NCBI GenBank assembly: GCA_000442015.1
Contig: KE561185.1
Span: 1 to 39,542 of the forward strand
DNA: 39,542 nt
From: Rozella allomycis CSF55
Taxonomy: Eukaryota
Direction: 5' to 3'
A program made the position numbers and the translations under genes. This document shows positions 9,297 to 39,542 of the stretch, one piece after another. A model generated the notes under the pieces. It was not told the DNA's origin and made no database searches. It saw nothing but the letters and a program-made list of their open reading frames with translations. Numbering within the stretch: position 1 is the stretch's first letter; every line of letters starts with the position of its first letter.

Positions 9297-12200
9297 ATGC
9301 AGCCACAACGCCCGAACCGACCACCGATGCCTCCACCAGCGGGGTATACTTCTGGTGGCTCTTTTGAAAATAGTGGCAACCGACCTGTGATGCGACCAGG
9401 CAGTGGCCGACCAGCTGGGACGCCGATGACGCCTGGACAGTATGCACGGCCCCCACCGATGCAGGCAGTTGCGAATAATATGCTAAATTTAAATAATATG
9501 CAAGGAGGAGTGAGCAGTGTGCAAGGAGGAGGAGTGAATAGTGTGCCGAATATGATGCAGGGAAGTATGAACAGACAAGGATCGATGAATAGTTTGCCGA
9601 ATGCGGGGAATGTGGGAAATGGATATGGGAATGTAGCTGGGAATAGAATGTCGCAGGGAAGCATGGTGAATCCAAATGTAGGAAATGTAGGAAATGTAGT
9701 TGGGAATAGAATGTCGCAGGGAAGTATGATGAGTCCAAATGCAGCTAATGTGCCTGGAAACAGAATGTCAGGCACGTACTCACCATCTGTAATGCAACCG
9801 CTGCCACCGCCCGTGCCCGGAGTTCCAACTTATGCGGTGCCACCCAGTATGCCGAGACCGATGATGCCTGTGCATGGTGTGATGACTGAAGGGCAGTCGA
9901 ATGCAGCGTCGCCTGTGGTTCCCGAGATGAATATTGAGAGTGCTAGACAGACGCCTTTCCAAGCGCCGTCGCCAATGACTGCTGGTAAGAGAAGAGTGTT
10001 GCAGGCGGGATATACGACGCCGGAGGGTCAGAGTAGAGCTGAGAGTCCGATGGTGGGTAGTGGGTACCAGCCGATGCAGAGCAGTGGATTGCGGCCGATG
10101 GCTAGTCCTGTGGTGAAGAATGATGTTGTTGGGCAGATGGCTGGACAGTTTGGGCAGATGGGAATACAATCGGTAAGTGTGTAGAGTTTGGATGAGTAGA
10201 TGCCGAATGTTAATTTTAATGGACAAGCAGAGGTGTATGATTTGCAGGAGAGGCTGGTTGTTCCTAGTGTGCCGCATGTAAGGGATGCATGTTTGTGATG
10301 ATAGATTAATGTGAATTTTGGGATACCACCGCCAGTGGAGTGTGGAAGGGAGTATATGAGGCCAACGTTGAATAAGTTTCCGACGAGTCAGTCGTTGTTG
10401 AGCAAGAGTAGATTGATAGCTGGGGTGTGTGTGAATCCATTTCCTAGTAGGAGGGGAGAGATTCCAGTTGTTTCTGGGGTGATTGTTAGATGTAGAAGGT
10501 GTAGAACTTATATTAATCCGTATGTGACGTTTATGGACCAGGGCACGAGATGGAAGTGTAATTTGTGTGAGATGGTGAATGATATGCCAGGAAACTATGA
10601 TTATGATAGTTTGACGCAGGGGTATGTGAATAGAAGTGAGAGAAGAGAGTTGTTTCATTCTGTAGTAGAGTTTGTAGCGCCGACCGAGTATATGACGCGC
10701 CCACCGCAGCCATTGGCGATAATATTTCTGATTGATGTTAGTTTCCCATCGTTGCAGGGTGGGGTGTTGAAGGTTGTAGCTGGGAGTATAAAGGAGACGA
10801 TAGAGAAGATACCTAATGAGAATGGACGATTGAGAGTTGGGATAATGACGTTTGATGATTGTATTCATTATTACAATTTGAATTCAAATTTGATGGATGT
10901 TGAAATGTTTGTAGTGTCAGATTTGGAAGAGACGTTTATTCCAATCCCGGATGATTTGCTGGTTAATTTAAGTGAGAGTGAAAAGATTATAGAAAGTTTG
11001 TTGGAGAAGATTGAGAGATTGTTTAAAGGAAAGAACTCTGGAGGGAATGTGTTGGGGCCAGCGCTAAAGTCTGCCGTTAGTTTGTTGTCACCTATTGGCG
11101 GGAAGATTGTAGTTGTTCAAAGTGGATTGCCTAATAAAGGGGAAGGAGTGTTGAAGAATAGAGAAGATGTGAAATTGATGGGAACCAATAAAGAGTCAAC
11201 GTTGTTTCAGCCCAGTAGTAATTTTTATAAGAATTTGGCTATCGAATGTTCTAAATCGCATATTTCAGTTGACATGTTTGTAGTTTCTAATCAATACAAT
11301 GATTTAGCAACGTTGAATGGACTTGTTACATTTACAGGGGGAAATCTTTATTATTATCCAACATTCAATGGGGGTAATTTGGAAGAAATAAAACATTTAT
11401 CTTTTGATTTCTCATCGAGTATTTCTAGATATATTGGATTAGAAGCAGTTTTCAGAGTTAGAGCATCAAAAGGTAATCACAGGAGTTAACATTGAATAGG
11501 AATAACATCGATTGGATATTTTGGAAATCATTTTATGAGATCTTCAGATTTGATTTCATTGCCCACAGTGTCACCCGATAATTGTCAATGTGTGCAATTC
11601 TCATTAGAAGAGACAATTACAACGCCATACATTTCTATTCAAACAGCGCTTTTGTATACAACGATTGAAGGCGAAAGAAGAATTAGAGTTTTTACTTTGT
11701 GTTTACCCACAACTTCAAATTTAAATGAACTTTATTCGAACGTTGATGAACAATCCATGTTTACTCTTTTATCTAAAATGGCTATTGAAAGAATTCTAAC
11801 TCACAAATTAGAAGATTCAAGAGAAGCTTTAATAAACAAATCTATAGAACTATTCAGCTCTTTTCAAAATGGCAAACCAAACATGACGCTGCCTCTAAAC
11901 TTGAAACATTTTCCACTTTTAATTCTTTCTTTATTAAAATCTATTCCTTTTAGATTTGGAAATGGCGTTATTATTCCTTCTGATCTAAGAGTCTTTCTCA
12001 CGTCAATCTTGAAAAATTTATACATTGATCAATCTATTCTATTCATACATCCAGATCTCTATCCTCTTCATCTCTTATCTGAAAATGTAATCTAGCTCCT
12101 TTCTCTTAATTCTAGGCTGGTCTAGAACTTTCTGATGGTTCTATTCAACTGCCACAAAGAATCAACCTCTCAAGCGAACATTTAGAACAGCACGGTCTAT

Positions 12201-13109: not shown

Positions 13110-13506
13110 TTATTTTTTTTTCCGCAATCGTTTGCTTCTTCTCGGCGAAAATACCCTGTCTCTTAAAATCTGGATGACGTCGTCGTACCCGTACTTGATA
13201 GCGAGTTGAGCCGCATAATTGTCCTGGAAGTCTACTCTAGGATCGTCAAGCAAAATTCCGACAACTTCTGCATGTCCGTACATTACAGCAATACTAATAG
13301 CATTATTGTTATTTGCACTGGGATCAACCCTGGAATCTGCAAGCAAAATTTTGACAACTTCCACATGTCCTTTCAAAGAAGCTATCTCAATGGCATCATT
13401 GTGATAGGCACTAGGATCAACTCTAGGATCTTCAAGCAAAATTTTCACAACTTCCACATGACCATTTTGAGAAGCTTTTCGAATAGCATAATTGTAATCG
13501 GCACTA
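13110..13506 (-). CDS. ankyrin-repeat protein C-terminal part with basic NLS-like tail
   Basis: VDPSA..N.AI..A...GH.EVVKILL repeats; ends SPRRSKRLRKKK; 5' end broken at n13507. Confidence 0.75.
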
Positions 13507-13697
13507 NCCGTGATGGAAATGTCATCGATGATCGAATAAATCCCTAGGTGACTGTTTATATTCAAATTGCATCCCATTTCAAATTTAAAGCGGTATTAAA
13601 TTACGAAGTCTTTCCTAAATGCAGAATGATTTTTTTTGAAACTTTAAAGATAATTTATTAAACTAAAAACANCTAAAAACATGAACACGACCCACCT

Positions 13698-14132
13698 TCA
13701 CATTATATTTGACTCAACTCTTGAATCGTGAATTAAGATTTTCACAACTTCCGCATGTCCATACACATAGGCTTTTCGAATAGCATCATTGCCATCAGCA
13801 CTAGGATCAACTCTTGAATCGTCAAGTAAAATTTTGACAACATTTGCATGCCCGTTCCGAGAAGCTTTTCGAATAGCATAATTGTCATTTGCACTAGGAT
13901 CAACTCTTGGATCTTCAAGTAACATTTTGACAACTTCCGCAAGGCCAAAATTAGACGCACATCGAATAGCAAAATTATCATTTGCACTTGGATCTACCCT
14001 TGAATCTTCAAGGAACATTTTCACAACATTTGCATGTCCATTCCTAGAAGCAAGCAAAATAGCCTCATAGTCATTAGCAATCGGATCTACTGTTGGATCA
14101 TCAAGTAAAATTTTGACAACTTCAGCGTGACC
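13698..14132 (-). CDS. ankyrin-repeat protein C-terminal part (paralog)
   Basis: About 4 repeats of 34 aa, stop at 13698; broken at n14133. Confidence 0.75.
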   Translation of the reverse strand, partial: GHAEVVKILLDDPTVDPIANDYEAILLASRNGHANVVKMFLEDSRVDPSANDNFAIRCASNFGLAEVVKMLLEDPRVDPSANDNYAIRKASRNGHANVVKILLDDSRVDPSADGNDAIRKAYVYGHAEVVKILIHDSRVESNIM

Positions 14133-14133
14133 N

Positions 14134-15025
14134 ACATCGAATAGCAAAATTGTAATTTGCACTTGGATCTACTCTTGAATCTTCAAGTAACATTTTGGCA
14201 ACATTTGCATACCCATTCCGAATAGCAAGCCGAATAGCTTCATATTCATTAGCATTAGGATTAAGTCTTGAATCTTCAAGTAAAATTTTGACAACATTTG
14301 CATGTCCATTCCGAGATGCAAGTTCAAGGGCATCGTTGACATATGTACAAGGGTCAACTCTAGAATCTTCAAGCAAAATTTTGACAACATTTGCATGCCC
14401 GTTCCAAGAAGCACTCCGAATAGCAGAATTTTCATCGGCACTTGGATCTACTCTAGAATCTTCAAGCAAAATTTTGACAACATTTGCATGCCCATTCCAA
14501 GAAGCAACCCGAATAGCATAATTGGCATTTACACTTGGATCAACCCTGGAATCTGTAAGCAAAATTTTAACAACTTCTGCATAGCCAAAGTCACAAGCAA
14601 ACCGAATAGCAACATTTTTCGCATCACTTGGATCCACTCTGAAATCTGCAAGCAAAATTTTGACAACCTCGGCATGTCCGTTCGTTGAAGCATTTCGAAT
14701 AGCATCATTGTCATCTGCGCTTGGGTCTACTCTTGAATCAGCAAGCAAAATTTTGACAACTTCTGTATGTCCGTTCATACACGCATTTCGAATAGCATCA
14801 TTGTTATTTGCACTGGGATCAACGATTGGATTTGTTAAAAGTAACTTAACAATTTCTGTGTGCCCATATTCTGCTGCTACCCTAATTGCATAGTTTCTGT
14901 CTGCTGAAGGATTTGGGTTGAAACCATTCTTGAGACTATACAATTCGCTGATCACCATATGCCCGTCTTGGGTTGTATGTATTAGATTATACTGGCATGC
15001 AAACTGGAAAGCATAGTCAACAGCT
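14134..15025 (-). CDS. ankyrin-repeat protein internal part (paralog or allele)
   Basis: About 7-8 ankyrin repeats, near-identical to 15144-15700; bounded by n14133 and n15026. Confidence 0.75.
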
Positions 15026-15143
15026 NCGAATAGCATCATTGTTATATGCACTGGGATCAACGATTGGATTTGTTAACAGAAACTTAACAATCTCTGTGTG
15101 CCCATATTCTGCTGCTACCCTAATTGCATAGTTTCTGTCTGCN

Positions 15144-16013
15144 CATTTTGACAACATTTGCATGTCCTTTCCGAGATGCAAGTTCAAGGGGATCGTTGTC
15201 ATATGTACAAGGGTGAACTCTAGAATCTTCAAGCAAAATTTTGACAACATTTGCATGCCCGTTCCAAGAAGCACTCCGAATAGCAGAATTGTCATCGGCA
15301 CTTGGATCTACTCTAGAATCTTCAAGCAAAATTTTGACAACATTTGCATGCCCATTCCAAGAAGCCCTCAGAATAGCAACATTGTCCACATCACTTGGAT
15401 CCACCCTGGAATCCGCGAGCAAAATTTTGACAACTTCTGTATGCCCGTTCATAGACGCATTTCGAATAGCATCATTGTTATTTGCACTGGGATCGACGAT
15501 TGGATTTGTTAAAAGAAACTTAACAATCTCTGTGTGCCCATTTTCCGCTGCAATCCTTATTGCATAGTTCCTGTCTGCTGAAGGATTTGGGTTGAAACTT
15601 TTGTTGAGACTATACAATTCGCTGATCATCATATGCCCATCTTGGATTGTATGTATTAGATTATATTGGCATGCAAACTGGAAAGCATAGTCAACAGCTT
15701 TTTGAGAAGTATCCTTTTGTCTAAGGAAGTTCAGAAAGCAAACGAACCTTTCAAATTTGTTTCGTCTAACTCTGTTATTGCCTTCGAGAATGTCACCACA
15801 TAAATCCATGTTTAGCAATTTACCACAACTCTGCTTAATAAGATATTGAATTACACATGGACATTTCCATGAAAGACTTACTTCCGGAGCTTGATGAAGG
15901 ATCAAGTCGAAGCAAAGTGAACGAAGCCAGCGTGATGTCCGAGAAATTTGTTTCACATCATTTAAACTTAAGTGCGACAAAATAACCAGCCAAACTTCAT
16001 GTGGTACCTCCAT
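15144..16013 (-). CDS. F-box + ankyrin-repeat protein (N-terminal part)
   Basis: ATG 16013 MEVPHEVWLVILSHLSLNDVKQISRTSRWLRSLC matches the F-box consensus and is followed by ankyrin repeats; truncated at n15143. Confidence 0.75.
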
Positions 16014-16069
16014 TTTGTAGGGAAAAGGTTTATCAGAACCGGGGTTTTCTATTTTTTTAACCGAAATAT

Positions 16070-16706
16070 ATGACTTGCACTCATTTCTCTGTAATTTATT
16101 CAGGCGAAATACATTCATCCAACGTAACATCGTCATTAATTTAAAATAGCTTCCTGCATACGACGACCTATACGTTAAATACTCTATAGTGTGCGGGCCC
16201 GACTGGCAAGTCCTTTCAGTAAAACATCATTCTAGGCAAGACAGGGCATTGAAGATGGCATATCCCAGATATCCAAAAAGACGCTTTATTCGGGTAACTC
16301 TTCAGTTTGGAACTTTCCGATTGACCTTTCCCTGAAATCGACCCAGGCTCATGGCTGGCCACGAATGGTTATAAGTGTGTACGGATTGGATGCTCTTGGA
16401 CGTGATGTTATCCGTGGGTATGGAATGTGTCATCTGCCGTTAGTTCCCGGGCGTGAGCAGATTAATGTGCCACTGTTTGTGCCAAGGGCAGGAAGCTTGT
16501 TTGGGCAGGTTTTTGGAATTTTAAGTGGACGGCTTCCAGAGTTTGTTGATCCTCGCTTTGTTGCTAATTATGATGATCGCGATTGTAAATTGATTTTGAA
16601 AATTTGAATAGTTGTTAGGACGGAGAGCTATGGGAGTGTAAAGATATCGGTGGAGACTGTTTTCAAAGATTTTGATAAATTTTATTGCTTTTGTTATTTA
16701 TTGTGA
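16070..16706 (+). CDS. B9D1: B9 domain-containing protein 1 (ciliary transition zone, MKS module)
   Basis: Spliced: DDLYVKYSIVCGPDW..G.EDGISQ..VWNFPIDL..KST..HGWPR..SVYGLD.LGRDVIRGYG..HLP..PG; three micro-introns. Confidence 0.9.
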
Positions 16707-22647: not shown

Positions 22648-24078
22648 ATGAATCACAGGAGAATAAGGTTCATTTCACTAGGTATCACGATTTTGGTTAC
22701 ATTATTCGTTACTCTTAAATTAAACGGTGAATCTGGTACATCTACGATAATCCTAAACGACATTGAGAGTTTAAAGGCGAAAGAAGAATTAAAGATGCCC
22801 GATCAAAGTAAAGAGACTTCAATAGATAGAAATGATCGTGTAAAACACACGTTAAAATCTCTTTCATCGTTTCTTAAAAAATATTTATCAACATCACAGA
22901 ATGAATCATCATGTCAACGGACTCTAGTCTGCAACGTAAATAAGGCTTGCGGATTTGGTTGCCAAATACATCACGCAGTCCATTGCTTTCACACTGCTAT
23001 TGCCACTAAAAGAACACTTGTTCTTGAGACAAAAGATTGGTCCTATAAACCTGAAGGTGGTTGGGACAAGATATTTCTACCAATAACGCAATGTCCTAAA
23101 AGACAAGAAGAAAATCAATATCCATTTTTCTCAGAAGATTCTGATCACGACCCACATGTATTTCTTCCTATTGTAGAAAATAATCAGCCAAAGTACGAAA
23201 TCCCAAATATGCCAGAGGATCTTTTTGATGAACTTAAATCGATCCACGGATATCCAACTGTGTGGTGGATTGGTCACCTTGTTTCTTACATTTTGAGGCC
23301 TACTTTGAAAACTCTCGAACCAATGGAAGATCAAAAGCGATTGTGGGCATGGCAAACTCCAGTTGTTGGGTAATTCTAAATGATTTATAATCATGTTTAG
23401 TGTGCATATACGACGAACAGATAAAATAGGTCTAGAAGCGATATATTACAGTTTGGATGAATACATGGAACATGTAGAGAAATATTTCAGGACATTGGAA
23501 TANACGTAGAGAAATATTTCGGGAAATTGGAATCTAGCCAATCTGTGAAAGTGAAGGCTGTCTTTTTGGCTACCGATGAGCCGCAGGTTATTCAGGAGGC
23601 TAAATCGCGATACAAGGAATACATCTTCTATACCAACGATCATGCTGCCTCTTTAGCGAACCATGTTTATGGCAGTAGATATTCGGATTCTTCTTTGCAT
23701 GGAGTGTTTTCAGACGTGTATCACTTGTCAAATACAGATTTTCTTGTTTGTACAATGTCATCGCAGATTTGTAGGCTTGCATATGAATTGATGCAAACAA
23801 AGCATACCGATAAATCAAATTCATTTGTATCTCTTGACGACCCTTATTATTTTGGTGGTTGGCTTCCAAAAAAGGTGTGCGCCATTGAAGATCATATCGC
23901 GAAAAGCTCTGAAGGACTCGATGCACGCATTGGTGATATTTTTGAACATCTGGGGGAGAATGATGGGTTTGTCAAAGGAAAAAATATCAGAACTGGTAGT
24001 GTAGGTCTGATACCCACCAATAAAGTTGAAGTTTGCATGAAAGGAACGCCTTTTCCTAATATTCTTAATGATAAATAA
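22648..24078 (+). CDS. FUT8: alpha-(1,6)-fucosyltransferase (GT23, FUT8-type) with C-terminal SH3
   Basis: Type II TM anchor; CGFGCQIHH; VG|VHIRRTDK; FLATD; DFLVCTMSSQICRLAYE; SLDDPYYFGG; SH3-like tail ...G.N.RTG..GL.P..KV; one intron at ~23370-23400; n join at 23503. Confidence 0.9.
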
Positions 24079-35162: not shown

Positions 35163-37488
35163 TTATTGACAAGAATTAAAACGAGCCAAAACGATGATTA
35201 GAAGAAGAATTTGTAGAATAAATGAAGATTTAATAATGCCTAGTTGTGATAAAGTTTGAATGTTACCTGGATAATGAATTTGGTTGTGAATGTTGACAAT
35301 TAAATTGATTGGAGATTCCTTTTTACATGCTAACAGTTCTTTTAAGATAATACTTGATTCTGTAATTGTCTCTTTAGGTTCTCTTTGTTTAACTTTTTCA
35401 ATTTCAACTTCTTCAATTTCAACATCTTTGCCTTCGGTTGATTGTTCATTAGAATTGTTAATTTCAATTAATTGTTTAAATATTTGAGCGCCAGCAATTT
35501 GATTCAAATCTTCTTCATCATTTAATGTGCTTTCGTTTGTATGATCACTTGTTTCTATTTCTTCATCAAAGTCAGTTTCGNNNNNNNNNNNNNNNNNNNN
35601 NNNNNNNNNNNNNNNNNNNNNNNNNNNNNNNNNNNNNNNNNNNNNNNNNNNNNNNNNNNNNNNNNNNNNNNNNNNNNNNNNNNNNNNNNNNNNNNNNNNN
35701 NNNNNNNNNNNNNNNNNNNNNNNNNNNNNNNNNNNNNNNNNNNNNNNNNNNNNNNNNNNNNNNNNNNNNNNNNNNNNNNNNNNNNNNNNNNNNNNNNNNN
35801 NNNNNNNNNNNNNNNNNNNNNNNNNNNNNNNNGCGCATGCGAGCAAGCAATACTTCATTTCTTTCTAATGTCTCCATAGATAATATTTCCTCTCTCAGAA
35901 CTTTCATTTCAGCTTCACGGTTTATTTGTTTTACCATTTCAAAGTATTTACGAATTTCATCACCCCCAAAATTATTTTCACACGCAACTTTCTCTTCAGC
36001 TTCATGATTAATTTGTTCTAAGTTTTCTAAGCGATTGCGCATGCATGCAAGCAATGCTTGTTCATTTTTTTCTAATGCCTCCATAGCAAATATTTCCTCT
36101 CTCAGAACCTTTATTTGTTGTAACATTTTAAAGTATTTATGCCTTTCATCACTCTTTCGTTGTTTTTCATCAACTTTGTCTTCTTTTATCTCGACTGTCT
36201 TTTCTGCATTACTCGTCTTGGCTATTAGCCCCTCTGGCTCTTTCGCCGACTTTTTGTTTTCTTTCACATTCACACTCGTCTGTTCAATGTTCGCATCCTT
36301 CAATGATGATTTCTTTTCAATTATTTCATCACCTTCAAGCGAATTTGATTGTGAAGCTGAAAGTGACAAAAATTCGTTAAATGAAATTGCATTCTCTTCC
36401 AAATAGATTCCAGAATCTCTAAGTCGTTTATCTTCAAATTCCAGATTGAGTGCCATTTTATCCCAATCTATTTTTTGAAAGAATCGATGCTTTTTTATTT
36501 GTTCAATCGTCAACCTATTTTGAGAATCACAAATCATTTTCTTTATTAAATCAAAAAACACAAGATTAAATTCTTTTGGACAATTTCTAATGATTCCAAC
36601 TTTAATTAAATTTTCCATTGTTTCAGAAAATAATCTTTTTTCTTTCTGCATGAAGATTTGATTTACATTGCGATACGGATACATTTTTTCTCTCGTTTTT
36701 TCTTCACTATCTTTTAAATTGATTAAATTACAGCCATGAAGATGATATAATGTAACACCCAGACTGAAAATGTCTGAACTGGTTGAATAATCAAGTCTTG
36801 ATGGGGTACTCGCAAGCTCAGGGGCTATAAAGAACAAAGTTCCCATCCGTTTAATATCTTCATCCTTCTTCATCACAGAAGCATTAAAATCTATTAATTT
36901 TATTTTTCCATTATCAACCATTATATTCCCGGGCTTGATGTCCCTTGAAATTAATCTTGCAGCTTTCAAATGCTCCAACGCTAAAACGCATTTTGCTGCT
37001 ATCTCTCTTATTTTATCCAAGTCAAATGTGTAATTTATCTTAAAATGCTCCAAGAAATTCTCTTTATCTACTGGATCATATTGATTCGCAAACGATCCCA
37101 AATCAAACCCTGGAATATGCTCCATTATAATGAAATATGGCTCATCTACAATCTTCTTTTCTATCAGCTTGGCATTCGTACATATCAGATTTGGAGTAAA
37201 CGGGGAATTCTTCAATAGATCCAACGCTCTAATCTCTGAATAGAATTGCGATATCAACGATTGGTCTTTTTTGTAATCATCTGCGCCGTGGAATACTTTG
37301 GCTGCGTACGTTTGCATCGTCTTCAACCGAAACACATAATGAACACTAATCTTGTATCCTGCGCTCATAATCTTTATAGTGTCAAATTCAGATATTCTGC
37401 ATTCTGGGATTTTGTCAACACTATATTTGACTCCCCTTGTTAAAGTGAAAATGGTCAGAAGGAAGATCCCGAAAACACTTTTTTTCAT
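35163..37488 (-). CDS. signal-peptide-bearing Ser/Thr kinase with coiled-coil repeats and hydrophobic C-terminus (spans N gap 35581-35832)
   Basis: MKKSVFGIFLLTIFTLTRG signal; YAAK, SRDIKPGN, DFN, GTLFFIAPE, DIFSLG, IKKHRFF..IDW; putative C-terminus ...FILQILLLIIVLARFNSCQ beyond the gap. Confidence 0.78.
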
Positions 37489-37646
37489 CTATGGCGCAGC
37501 ATTTCCATCTACGGTCGAAAACGTGTTTCACAAGTTCAAAAATGTGACAATGTTAAGTATTGACTTTATACTACCTATTTTTAGGCCATGTGTATTTTTA
37601 TAAGGACGGCAGGTGGCTTTCCGCTAAATTAGCCACACAAAACAAA

Positions 37647-38594
37647 ATGGCGACCATAGAGTTTTCAGGCTTTCCTCTATATATCAGATATGGCCAAACA
37701 TATAATATCGACTTTAACATCAAAGTAAAAAGAGAAATCAAAGCCGTGCGTCAAATATCGTTGTCCTTGAAGGAGAAATTATGGTTTAGGTATACTCACA
37801 AGTACTCAGACTTGTTAATCGACGAAACTTTTGATATTCTTTCTATTGATCTCAGCTCCTACATCACAAACGAGGGCACCATAAAGGCTGGATGCTATTC
37901 TGGCTGTCTTGTAATAGACACAGTAGAATTGAACCTTCTGTCATGCACCATTCCAAAAACATACTTGAATTTCTGGTCACGATGTATAAACTATGAAACT
38001 CACAATGTCACATATTTCCCGCGCAAATCGGCTAATATGCTGCGAGAAACGTTTATTGATTTCGAAATAGTTAAACGCGGCTGGTTTCGTAGAAATGTTA
38101 GTCAAAAGAGAAAATTATTGATCAAGGAAATTCCAAGTGATTACTTTGCGCCTCTAGAATTACGTGATATGGAACCACACGTAGAATACTTGGAGTCATT
38201 TCCAATGACCGCAACCGTTATATTTGAAAAGAGACAGTTACTCTGTGGATCCACTTTAAGATTTTCTTTAATAATAGAGAATCGATTCCCTGTCGATGCC
38301 AGAATCAAAAAGGTTTGGATTTCCCAAGATACTAGTTTCAAATTTGTCCATCAAGAGCTAACTGATGACGACATCATTTCTGATGATTGTAAGATTAGTC
38401 TCAAAAAGGTGCCTCCAATAAAGCCGAATACAATGCAGGAAGTTAAACTTCAAATGAAGCTTCCAAAGAAATGGTCTTACAGTATCATCAATGGAGATCT
38501 TGTCATGAGGCACTATGGCGTCTACTTTGTTATCGGAACGGAAGATAACGAACGCGACTATTATGCGCCTTTTCAAATTCTTGACGAGATGTAG
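37647..38594 (+). CDS. divergent arrestin-fold-like protein (paralog 1), intronless
   Basis: Two beta-rich halves; G.T....L.IEN......IKK..I.....F; P.I.P.......L..KLP.....SI..G.LV...Y.V pattern resembles Arrestin_C. Confidence 0.5.
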   Translation: MATIEFSGFPLYIRYGQTYNIDFNIKVKREIKAVRQISLSLKEKLWFRYTHKYSDLLIDETFDILSIDLSSYITNEGTIKAGCYSGCLVIDTVELNLLSCTIPKTYLNFWSRCINYETHNVTYFPRKSANMLRETFIDFEIVKRGWFRRNVSQKRKLLIKEIPSDYFAPLELRDMEPHVEYLESFPMTATVIFEKRQLLCGSTLRFSLIIENRFPVDARIKKVWISQDTSFKFVHQELTDDDIISDDCKISLKKVPPIKPNTMQEVKLQMKLPKKWSYSIINGDLVMRHYGVYFVIGTEDNERDYYAPFQILDEM

Positions 38595-38706: not shown

Positions 38707-39542
38707 ATGGCCACCATTGAGTTTTCCAGAGTCCCACTTTATGTCACAAAAGGCCAAACGTACAACATTGATTTTACTATTCATGTAAAAAAAGAAATTA
38801 AAAGTGTCCGCCGAGTGTCAGTTGCGCTACTGGAAAGAGAAAAGTTTAATTTCAAGCACAAGTACGTGCACACAGAAGTGGATGAAACATACGAGCATAC
38901 TCTTATAGACATGAGTGCATATATAACAAACGAGGGAACCCTGAAACCGGGAAGCTATAGCGGAACGCTTACATTTGACACGACGGAATGGAACGATGGA
39001 TCTTGCAGCATTCCAAAAACTGCTCTGAATTACTGGTCGCAATTTATTACCGCGAATATTAATGGATATAGGTATTTTATACGCAAACACGGCAATATTT
39101 TCCGTGAAACATTCCTACACTTTGAAATCGAGAAGCGTGGCACGTTTCGCAAAAACATTCGACATAAACGAGGATTATTGGTCAAAGCATCACTAAACGA
39201 CATGTTTTCGATCACGGAACTGCGCANNNNNNNNNNNNNNNNNNNNNNNNNNNNNNNNNNNNNNNNNATAAATGCAACAGCAGCTTCCTTTCCGATGGTA
39301 GCCTCTGTAAAATTTGAAAAAAGAAATGTTCCGTGTGGATCAACTTTGGTATTTTCTTTGATAATTGAAAATCATTTTCCGATCAAAGCTAAAATTAAGA
39401 AGATTTGGATTTCGCGAGATACTGTTTTCACATTCGTTAACGGTGACAACTTGATATCCGACAAACGTAAAGTAAGTCTAAAGAGAGTGCCGGATATTGG
39501 GCCTAATATTTTGCAGGAATTGAGATTCGAAACAAAGTTGCC
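38707..39542 (+). CDS. tandem paralog of 37647-38594 (partial; N gap 39227-39267, runs off the window)
   Basis: MATIEFSRVPLYVTKGQTYNIDF vs MATIEFSGFPLYIRYGQTYNIDF; YITNEGT, RETF..FEI.KRG and CGSTL.FSLIIEN.FP shared. Confidence 0.75.
   Translation, partial: MATIEFSRVPLYVTKGQTYNIDFTIHVKKEIKSVRRVSVALLEREKFNFKHKYVHTEVDETYEHTLIDMSAYITNEGTLKPGSYSGTLTFDTTEWNDGSCSIPKTALNYWSQFITANINGYRYFIRKHGNIFRETFLHFEIEKRGTFRKNIRHKRGLLVKASLNDMFSITELRXXXXXXXXXXXXXXINATAASFPMVASVKFEKRNVPCGSTLVFSLIIENHFPIKAKIKKIWISRDTVFTFVNGDNLISDKRKVSLKRVPDIGPNILQELRFETKL

Follow-up and report, generated by a model that had tools for sequence, protein, structure and literature searches.

Kinases that parasites secrete or expose to their hosts have already been described. 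The ROP kinases (ROPK) of Toxoplasma and the FIKK kinases of Plasmodium are secreted with the help of signal peptides, are lineage-specific and polymorphic, form large families and are exported as soluble proteins, and a secreted CK1 is found in Leishmania and Plasmodium. In Microsporidia, an intracellular parasite lineage near Rozella, an excerpt of Reinke et al. 2017 (PMC5423893) places kinases among the commonest domains of predicted host-exposed proteins and portrays them as clade-specific and equipped with signal peptides or transmembrane (TM) segments; within this excerpt, Rozella served only as an outgroup. Here, we describe a gene on the minus strand of contig KE561185.1 from Rozella allomycis CSF55. 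Rozella, free-living-like and sister to Microsporidia, is of particular interest as a model for the origin of intracellular parasitism in fungi. The window is this whole contig of 39,542 bases. What is predicted to be new in comparison with the known parasite kinases is an AGC kinase that is membrane-anchored and arranged in the reverse of the receptor kinase topology.

The resemblance to the apicomplexan systems is one of concept only, as ROP kinases and FIKK are non-homologous to the Rozella kinase beyond the kinase fold, and are soluble exported members of large families, whereas the Rozella kinase is predicted to be membrane-anchored and has at least five family members. Neither ROPK nor FIKK was present among the PDB sequence matches listed (best 60 of 1045; 60 of 63) or among the fold matches listed, where the nearest proteins were all AGC kinases. 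Kinship with these families, which the original prediction had cited as precedents, is unsupported. Similarly, no sequence relation to the host-exposed kinases of Microsporidia turned up among the search matches. Receptor kinases are single-pass membrane proteins with one kinase domain, as is the Rozella protein, but their order is reversed here, with the kinase located between signal and membrane segment and predicted to be non-cytosolic. To our knowledge, such a reversed topology has not been described for AGC kinases.

By sequence, the nearest described relatives are ROCK and MRCK, the best solved-structure matches to a profile of the Rozella family, although identity to ROCK, MRCK and DMPK is only ~20-30% and the kinship is one of similarity, not of a tree. 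According to an excerpt of PMC2778554, DMPK A-D combine an N-terminal AGC kinase, long helices or a coiled coil and a C-terminal membrane segment, which is likewise the predicted layout of the Rozella protein. In contrast to such tail-anchored proteins, the Rozella kinase has a signal-like N-terminus; the N-terminal helical bundle of ROCK is absent, with a plain hydrophobic run at residues 4-17 instead, and DFN and SRD stand in place of the DFG and HRD motifs of DMPK, ROCK and MRCK. STK32A/YANK1 has DFN at the same position and is in the Foldseek top ten, yet it keeps HRD and the activation-loop Thr, lacks a signal, stalk or anchor, and was outscored by ROCK with the Rozella family profile.

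The Rozella gene consists of one open reading frame (ORF) in which a signal-like N-terminus, a kinase domain, a stalk of ~420 aa and a C-terminal hydrophobic helix follow each other, interrupted only by an assembly gap that could be bridged using P0002 (ROZALSC1DRAFT_25222, 422 aa), a protein of a second R. allomycis CSF55 assembly. Judging from the sequence, we lean towards the product being a type I membrane protein, i.e., a Rozella-specific, AGC-derived Ser/Thr kinase with kinase and stalk on the non-cytosolic side, a reading held with slightly less than even confidence. The features of the gene (window coordinates; structure predictions by AlphaFold 2, AF2, with per-residue confidence as predicted local distance difference test, pLDDT) are:

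35163..37488, minus strand: whole gene, one ORF of ~769 codons, the only break being the assembly gap
37489..37491, minus strand: in-frame TAG directly upstream of the start codon, from sequence reading
37432..37488, minus strand: residues 1-19, signal-peptide-like, with MKK n-region, h-region at residues 4-17 and T-R-G c-region
36454..37410, minus strand: catalytic domain of the kinase (residues 27-345), opening with the family-conserved IPxC motif and closing with HRFFQKIDWDKM as in AGC kinases
37297..37299, minus strand: codon of K64 (AAK), the lysine that anchors ATP, which aligns with the lysine of the ROCK AMK motif and is invariant in alignments A1 and A2
36925..36948, minus strand: catalytic loop S-R-D-I-K-P-G-N, residues 181-188, with D183, K185 and N188 kept and S replacing the H of HRD
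36883..36891, minus strand: DFN for DFG, residues 200-202, N202 opening an N-A-S sequon
36370..36381, minus strand: FNEF, residues 370-373, a possible AGC hydrophobic motif (FxxF), the C-tail position being our own reading
36181..36360, minus strand: charged linker, probably disordered and the most haplotype-variable part (P0002 residues 32-91, AF2 pLDDT <50)
35833..36180, minus strand: helical repeat region, ~68-aa units (204-207 nt) continuing into the gap
35581..35832, no strand: assembly gap of 252 N, with a real content of 236 nt by P0002
35241..35580, minus strand: post-gap acidic region without a family match
35184..35240, minus strand: C-terminal hydrophobic helix of 19 residues, beyond which lie a tail of 6 residues (35166-35183) and the stop codon (35163-35165)
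35854..37368, minus strand: public gene model P0220 (505 aa), which starts at the internal Met41 and ends just before the gap

Coordinates and strand of the original prediction were borne out, with the ATG at 37488-37486, directly preceded by the in-frame TAG, and the stop at 35163-35165. Upstream of the gap the frame is open for 552 codons (37488 down to 35833; ~3e-18 by chance at the base composition of the window), and the post-gap frame contributes 138 open codons. The gene can also be called intronless as proposed, being a single ORF from Met1 to the stop apart from the 252 N. Because of the in-frame TAG, any 5' extension of the ORF requires an intron. A search for small introns (26-30 nt) came up with a single candidate, a GT..AG stretch of 24 nt whose end is at the ATG. 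It was rejected, as the putative exon 5' of it has a stop and no ATG. An upstream exon that changes the N-terminus, the scenario that the original prediction had regarded as fatal, was not found in any credible form next to the ATG.

The second concern raised earlier was that the hydrophobic tail, which lies beyond the gap and seemingly in another frame, might belong to a separate gene. P0002 joins both halves. It begins at Met345 of the window protein, matches 197/207 residues of the pre-gap part and 128/138 of the post-gap part, and supplies 79 residues across the gap in frame, resulting in a protein of ~769 aa. The apparent frame change between the gene halves is thus an artefact: by P0002 the missing sequence amounts to 236 bases, for which the assembly has 252 N. 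According to P0002, the gap contains the remainder of the second repeat unit and an acidic segment. Loose contig ends at 35580 and 35959/35965 (DNA runs X1, X2 and X5) translate manually to the same bridging residues, while none of the listed contig pieces of the DNA runs spans the gap. Closing the gap with P0002 and these contig ends therefore gives a single gene of ~769 codons to which the hydrophobic tail belongs. The gap sits in the 204-207-nt tandem repeat, which is a likely reason for the assembly break.

The kinase domain was recovered by profile search, structure model and fold comparison. Residues 48-337 match Pfam Pkinase (PF00069; E 4.4e-29, 102.1 bits against a cut-off of 31.7), and an AF2 model from a 39-row alignment reached a pLDDT of 80.9 and a predicted TM-score (pTM) of 0.81, with confidence below 50 only at residues 1-18 and 384-400. 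Foldseek gave at least 500 PDB matches at E <= 0.001, the top ones being kinases with the bilobal fold and the best being the AGC kinases AEK1, PDK1, GRK2, PKC iota, YANK1 and RSK2. RSK, STK32A, ROCK, MRCK and PKA were among the listed phmmer matches in the PDB. When the N-terminal 263 residues were used as a single sequence, the best PDB match was STK32A/YANK1 (4fr4, E 6.1e-13); the five-member Rozella family profile instead matched ROCK2 (1.4e-34), then ROCK1, MRCK (~5e-30) and PKA among solved structures. By sequence, the kinase belongs to the AGC group, with ROCK, MRCK, PKA and YANK1 nearest, which supplies the kinome classification that the original prediction had called for.

Catalytic K, D and D had been reported as retained, and K64, D183 and D200 are indeed present and aligned, accompanied by K185 and N188. 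SRD for HRD and DFN for DFG were equally correct, with the full D-x-K-x-x-N loop intact and the APE motif retained. The Gly loop is atypical as described, since SAGYKISV retains only the second Gly of the ROCK2 sequence GRGAFGEV. Across five family members, D183, K185, N188 and D200 are invariant and the HR of HRD is absent from all five; the Gly loop is kept in paralogs P0077 and P0187. DFN is not a convincing sign of decay, as the same motif is present at this position in human STK32A/YANK1, and the Rozella paralogs carry DFN, DLN, DMN or DFG. With K64, D183, N188 and D200 all kept, the kinase could phosphorylate proteins. The kinase core end (HRFFQKIDWDKM) aligns with the RSK core end, and FNEF comes 28 residues past it in a region where AF2 confidence is 54-79.

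The closest named proteins are all from R. allomycis CSF55. With HMMER, an exhaustive search gave 38,302 proteins at E <= 0.001 and just two at E <= 1e-30, one of which is a fragment of the kinase gene itself. The best word-indexed match outside the gene reached E 1.6e-9, which marks the protein as lineage-specific and fast-evolving. The better full-domain matches included four Rozella paralogs, a minimum number, namely EPZ33962 (P0077), EPZ33961 (P0101), EPZ36971 (P0110) and EPZ32332 (P0187/P0251), which provides the paralog count missing from the original prediction. The word-indexed searches are no census, as among the Rozella paralogs a five-paralog profile named only P0110 and a two-sequence profile only P0077. 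EPZ33961 and EPZ33962 are probably tandem paralogs, given their neighboring accession numbers on a single contig of 52,017 bases. The ESM Atlas returned generic kinase clusters only, and no publication pointing to this Rozella kinase family was recognized from its title or the start of its abstract. Two Logan proteins were also observed. In P0118, a membrane anchor of ~23 residues at the N-terminus precedes a kinase domain, and in P0078 a complete kinase domain comes after a partial one. The ending F-x-G/D-[VI]-[DN]-W-K..[FL]-G-A-L is common to the C-termini of both.

A signal-like N-terminus directly ahead of the kinase in the same ORF, the starting point of the original prediction, was confirmed by hydropathy and, by eye, from its n/h/c layout. 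Residues 4-17 are 14 uncharged hydrophobic residues (best 13-residue Kyte-Doolittle mean 2.35), and small residues were seen by eye at -3 and -1 of the presumed cleavage site. The hydrophobic core of 13-14 residues is too short for a membrane span; by comparison, a FUT8-like Golgi enzyme encoded on the same contig has a signal anchor of 16-17 residues. A comparable hydrophobic N-terminus was found in 12/307 other Met-starting proteins from the kinase searches. AF2 pLDDT stays below 50 over residues 1-18. The positive charge is found N-terminal to the h-region, which in our own reading would suit an N-in orientation. The models of P0077 and P0187 start exactly at IPxC, without a hydrophobic extension, suggesting that the hydrophobic segment was added in this copy.

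The public model P0220 lacks both hydrophobic ends, because it begins at Met41 and stops before the gap. If its start were right, the hydrophobic codons would be 5' untranslated region and the product would be soluble or tail-anchored without a signal. Besides the model itself, start context speaks for this possibility, with A at -3 of Met41 as opposed to T at -3 and an overlapping upstream ORF (uORF) for Met1. A protein starting at Met41 would, however, lose strand beta-1 (residues 35-43 in the AF2 N-lobe, block-mean pLDDT 92-95). It would also drop residues that align with ROCK, where similarity begins at residue 21-30, and with the paralogs, where it begins at residue 27 (P0077, IPxC..EF); as Met1 is the sole in-frame ATG above Met41, this homology indicates that the coding sequence reaches above the public start. 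The 40 codons above Met41 are open, for which P is ~0.05 by chance. Moreover, the same annotation truncates two paralogs N-terminally, with P0101 beginning midway through the N-lobe and P0110 only at the Met of its VAIK-type motif, AMK, so its start sites are unreliable for the Rozella kinase family. Taken together, we consider translation from Met41 very improbable. Whichever topology applies, P0220 lacks both targeting signals and at least two paralog models lack their N-lobes, and secretome or kinome surveys built on such truncated models would have missed or misclassified the family. The uORF has 7 codons (ATG GAA ATG ... TGA; 37485-37508, minus strand), and its TGA overlaps the main ATG as ATGA.

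The hydrophobic C-terminus had been proposed to resemble either a TM helix or a glycosylphosphatidylinositol (GPI) signal, of which we favor the first. Its hydropathy is high (13-residue mean 3.25, 19-residue mean 2.39), and an AF2 helix at P0002 402-421 covers the segment. In a GPI signal, an omega site whose omega and omega+2 positions are both small precedes a polar spacer, and the chain ends hydrophobically. Here, the hydrophobic run is succeeded by six polar residues, and no omega site with a small omega+2 was visible by eye ahead of the helix, making a transmembrane helix likelier than a GPI signal. A hydrophobic C-terminus was present in 19/325 proteins checked, a count that includes P0002 and the paralog pair P0101/P0249. 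Within the family, a membrane segment is present at the C-terminus of 3/5 members. In P0101 and P0110, the hydrophobic segment is succeeded by a basic tail (KKVKH.., RKRIAKIK), which by the positive-inside rule is consistent with the tail being cytosolic and the kinase outside.

The position of this helix also brings in a different arrangement, namely a cytosol-facing, tail-anchored AGC kinase of the DMPK type. Here, the C-terminal helix would be inserted post-translationally into an organelle membrane (endoplasmic reticulum, ER; mitochondrial outer membrane; or another parasite organelle), leaving kinase and coiled-coil stalk in the cytosol. The N-terminus would not work as an ER signal and could be a remnant of the ROCK/DMPK leucine-rich extension or a second membrane-binding element. 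A helix ending 6 residues from the C-terminus is in the defining position of a tail anchor, long helices are predicted after the kinase, and the family profile is nearest to ROCK2 (1.4e-34), ROCK1 and MRCK, with ROCK also listed by the single-sequence search. The basic tails of P0101 and P0110 suit organelle-directed tail anchors as well, and the sequon at the DFN asparagine would be harmless in the cytosol. The N-terminus is harder to accommodate, as tail-anchored proteins by definition have no N-terminal signal, and a run of 14 hydrophobic residues after MKK would meet the signal recognition particle first. This segment is uniformly hydrophobic rather than amphipathic, is wholly absent from the P0077 and P0187 models, and with just 34 residues before beta-1 there is no room for the ROCK-type N-terminal dimerisation bundle. 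We regard this arrangement as the main rival of the type I reading and as the less likely of the two.

In the type I topology that we favor, translation would begin at Met1 and the 19-residue signal would direct the chain into the ER, with cleavage probably after Gly19. Translocation would then carry across the kinase domain and the acidic, partly helical stalk of ~420 residues until the C-terminal helix halts transfer, keeping about six residues in the parasite cytosol. The kinase would finally be displayed on a long stalk at the host-parasite interface of the unwalled plasmodium, or would face the secretory or phagocytic lumen.

Several observations weigh against this topology or against an active kinase within it. 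The signal, TM and GPI assignments rest on hydropathy and rules of thumb. The start context of Met1 is weak (T at -3), with the 7-codon uORF overlapping it, whereas Met41 has A at -3. We know of no AGC kinase that is not cytosolic, and the family profile is nearest to the cytosolic-type kinases ROCK2 (1.4e-34), MRCK (~5e-30) and PKA. Tail anchors bound for mitochondria or peroxisomes carry basic tails, so the tails of P0101 and P0110 fit them too, and these TM-bearing paralogs are known just from N-terminally truncated models. The succession of kinase, coiled coil and membrane segment near the C-terminus is that of DMPK A-D, which face the cytosol as tail-anchored proteins (excerpt of PMC2778554). 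With respect to catalysis, the Gly loop retains one of three glycines (GxGxxG is not satisfied), the alignment with ROCK has the αC glutamate shifted by one position, and the AGC activation-loop site has no Ser/Thr (K-R-M before G-T, three residues shorter than RSK), where STK32A keeps a T. Furthermore, N202 of DFN lies inside an N-A-S sequon (N-G-S in paralog P0101), further sequons being present at N152 and in the stalk. The FUT8-like gene on the contig suggests that Rozella makes N-glycans, and an N-glycan on the DFN asparagine would probably block catalysis.

The stalk is charged and repeat-bearing as originally described, being net acidic and partly helical, with DNA direct repeats at 204-207-nt spacing and 86-89% identity. 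These came from a direct-repeat search; Tandem Repeats Finder reported just short 13-21-nt arrays. AF2 helices were predicted at P0002 90-156 and 163-243 (pLDDT 55-75) in a run without alignment, which had a mean pLDDT of 48.5 and was used for secondary structure only. Pfam gave no match on P0002 or on the post-gap piece. Two haplotypes at the kinase locus were seen in the DNA runs; the one RNA run labelled with the same species (X11) gave no sequence for the stretch. The 39 in-gene variant rows listed divide into 27 nonsynonymous and 12 synonymous changes, and the nonsynonymous:synonymous ratio among the listed rows is 3:5 in the kinase core and 7:3 in the linker; these counts are rough, as 25 further rows were left uncounted and rows at 36005-36095 may partly be repeat cross-mapping. 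The stalk appears to evolve fast, while the kinase looks constrained. Host-exposed proteins tend to evolve fast, and the fast evolution of the kinase gene is in keeping with a protein of this kind.

Even with the kinase outside or in a lumen, it might serve the parasite itself, as a secretory-pathway or phagosome-lumen kinase or as a catalytically weak scaffold whose targets are Rozella cargo, surface proteins or ingested material, and not as a host-directed effector. All topology evidence for the type I reading applies here as well, and the degenerate Gly loop and the sequon at DFN would be easier to reconcile with such a role. According to an excerpt of PMC6317583, the protoplast resides in a compartment inside the cytoplasm of the host, with the host plasma membrane pushed inward, and an excerpt of PMC10953367 describes phagocytosis of host cytoplasm by the plasmodium; direct access of the kinase to host cytosolic proteins is thus not a given. 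On the other hand, there is no likeness to known secretory-pathway kinases, the top sequence and fold matches all being cytosolic AGC kinases. That the stalk evolves rapidly and varies between haplotypes would be more expected of an exposed protein than of a housekeeping enzyme, and it is difficult to see why a lumenal enzyme should have a stalk of ~420 residues. On balance, we judge a purely parasite-serving role improbable.

Host targeting by the type I kinase is speculative. At its most ambitious, the family would represent ROCK/DMPK-like AGC kinases turned inside out, sent into the secretory pathway, displayed at the naked plasmodium surface on long acidic coiled-coil stalks and phosphorylating host proteins with host-side ATP, an idea that we put forward as a long shot. 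One purpose could be keeping mitochondria or ER of the host close to the parasite, as host mitochondria are reported to be recruited around the Rozella thallus (excerpt of PMC10953367). Should the type I topology hold, the protein would represent an AGC kinase that acts outside the cytosol and would give Rozella a first concrete effector candidate.

The region upstream of the kinase gene is a 158-nt divergent intergenic region, within which TATA-like boxes lie ~80 and 110 nt 5' of the kinase ATG. One haplotype (runs X1 and X2) has deletions of 3, 2, 2, 2 and 1 nt at 37528-37543 in the promoter region, and the same haplotype skips 58 nt at 37572-37631 in the promoter shared with the divergent gene, the locus being heterozygous. 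On the other side of this region are two tandem paralogous genes in the divergent orientation (37647-38594 and 38707-39540, both plus strand). For the first, Pfam gave a weak match to Arrestin_C (E 8.9e-5), whose 23.3 bits fall short of the cut-off of 27.7, and no Pfam match was obtained for the second in the N-terminal 173 residues before an internal N run.

Elsewhere on the contig, the FUT8-like alpha-1,6-fucosyltransferase ORF (22648-23373, plus strand; E 1.2e-52) has an N-terminal signal anchor and suggests core fucosylation of N-glycans in Rozella; as it is shorter than the full profile, further exons probably follow. A tandem array at 13110-16136 (minus strand) comprises three ankyrin-repeat ORFs with near-identical 33-aa repeats, interrupted by single N bases, of which the ORF at 15120-16136 has an F-box-like domain as well. 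Finally, a Sec24-like gene at 10356-12095 (plus strand; Sec23/24 trunk, E 2.7e-70) consists of two ORFs ~45 nt apart (11490-11534), presumably split by a small intron.

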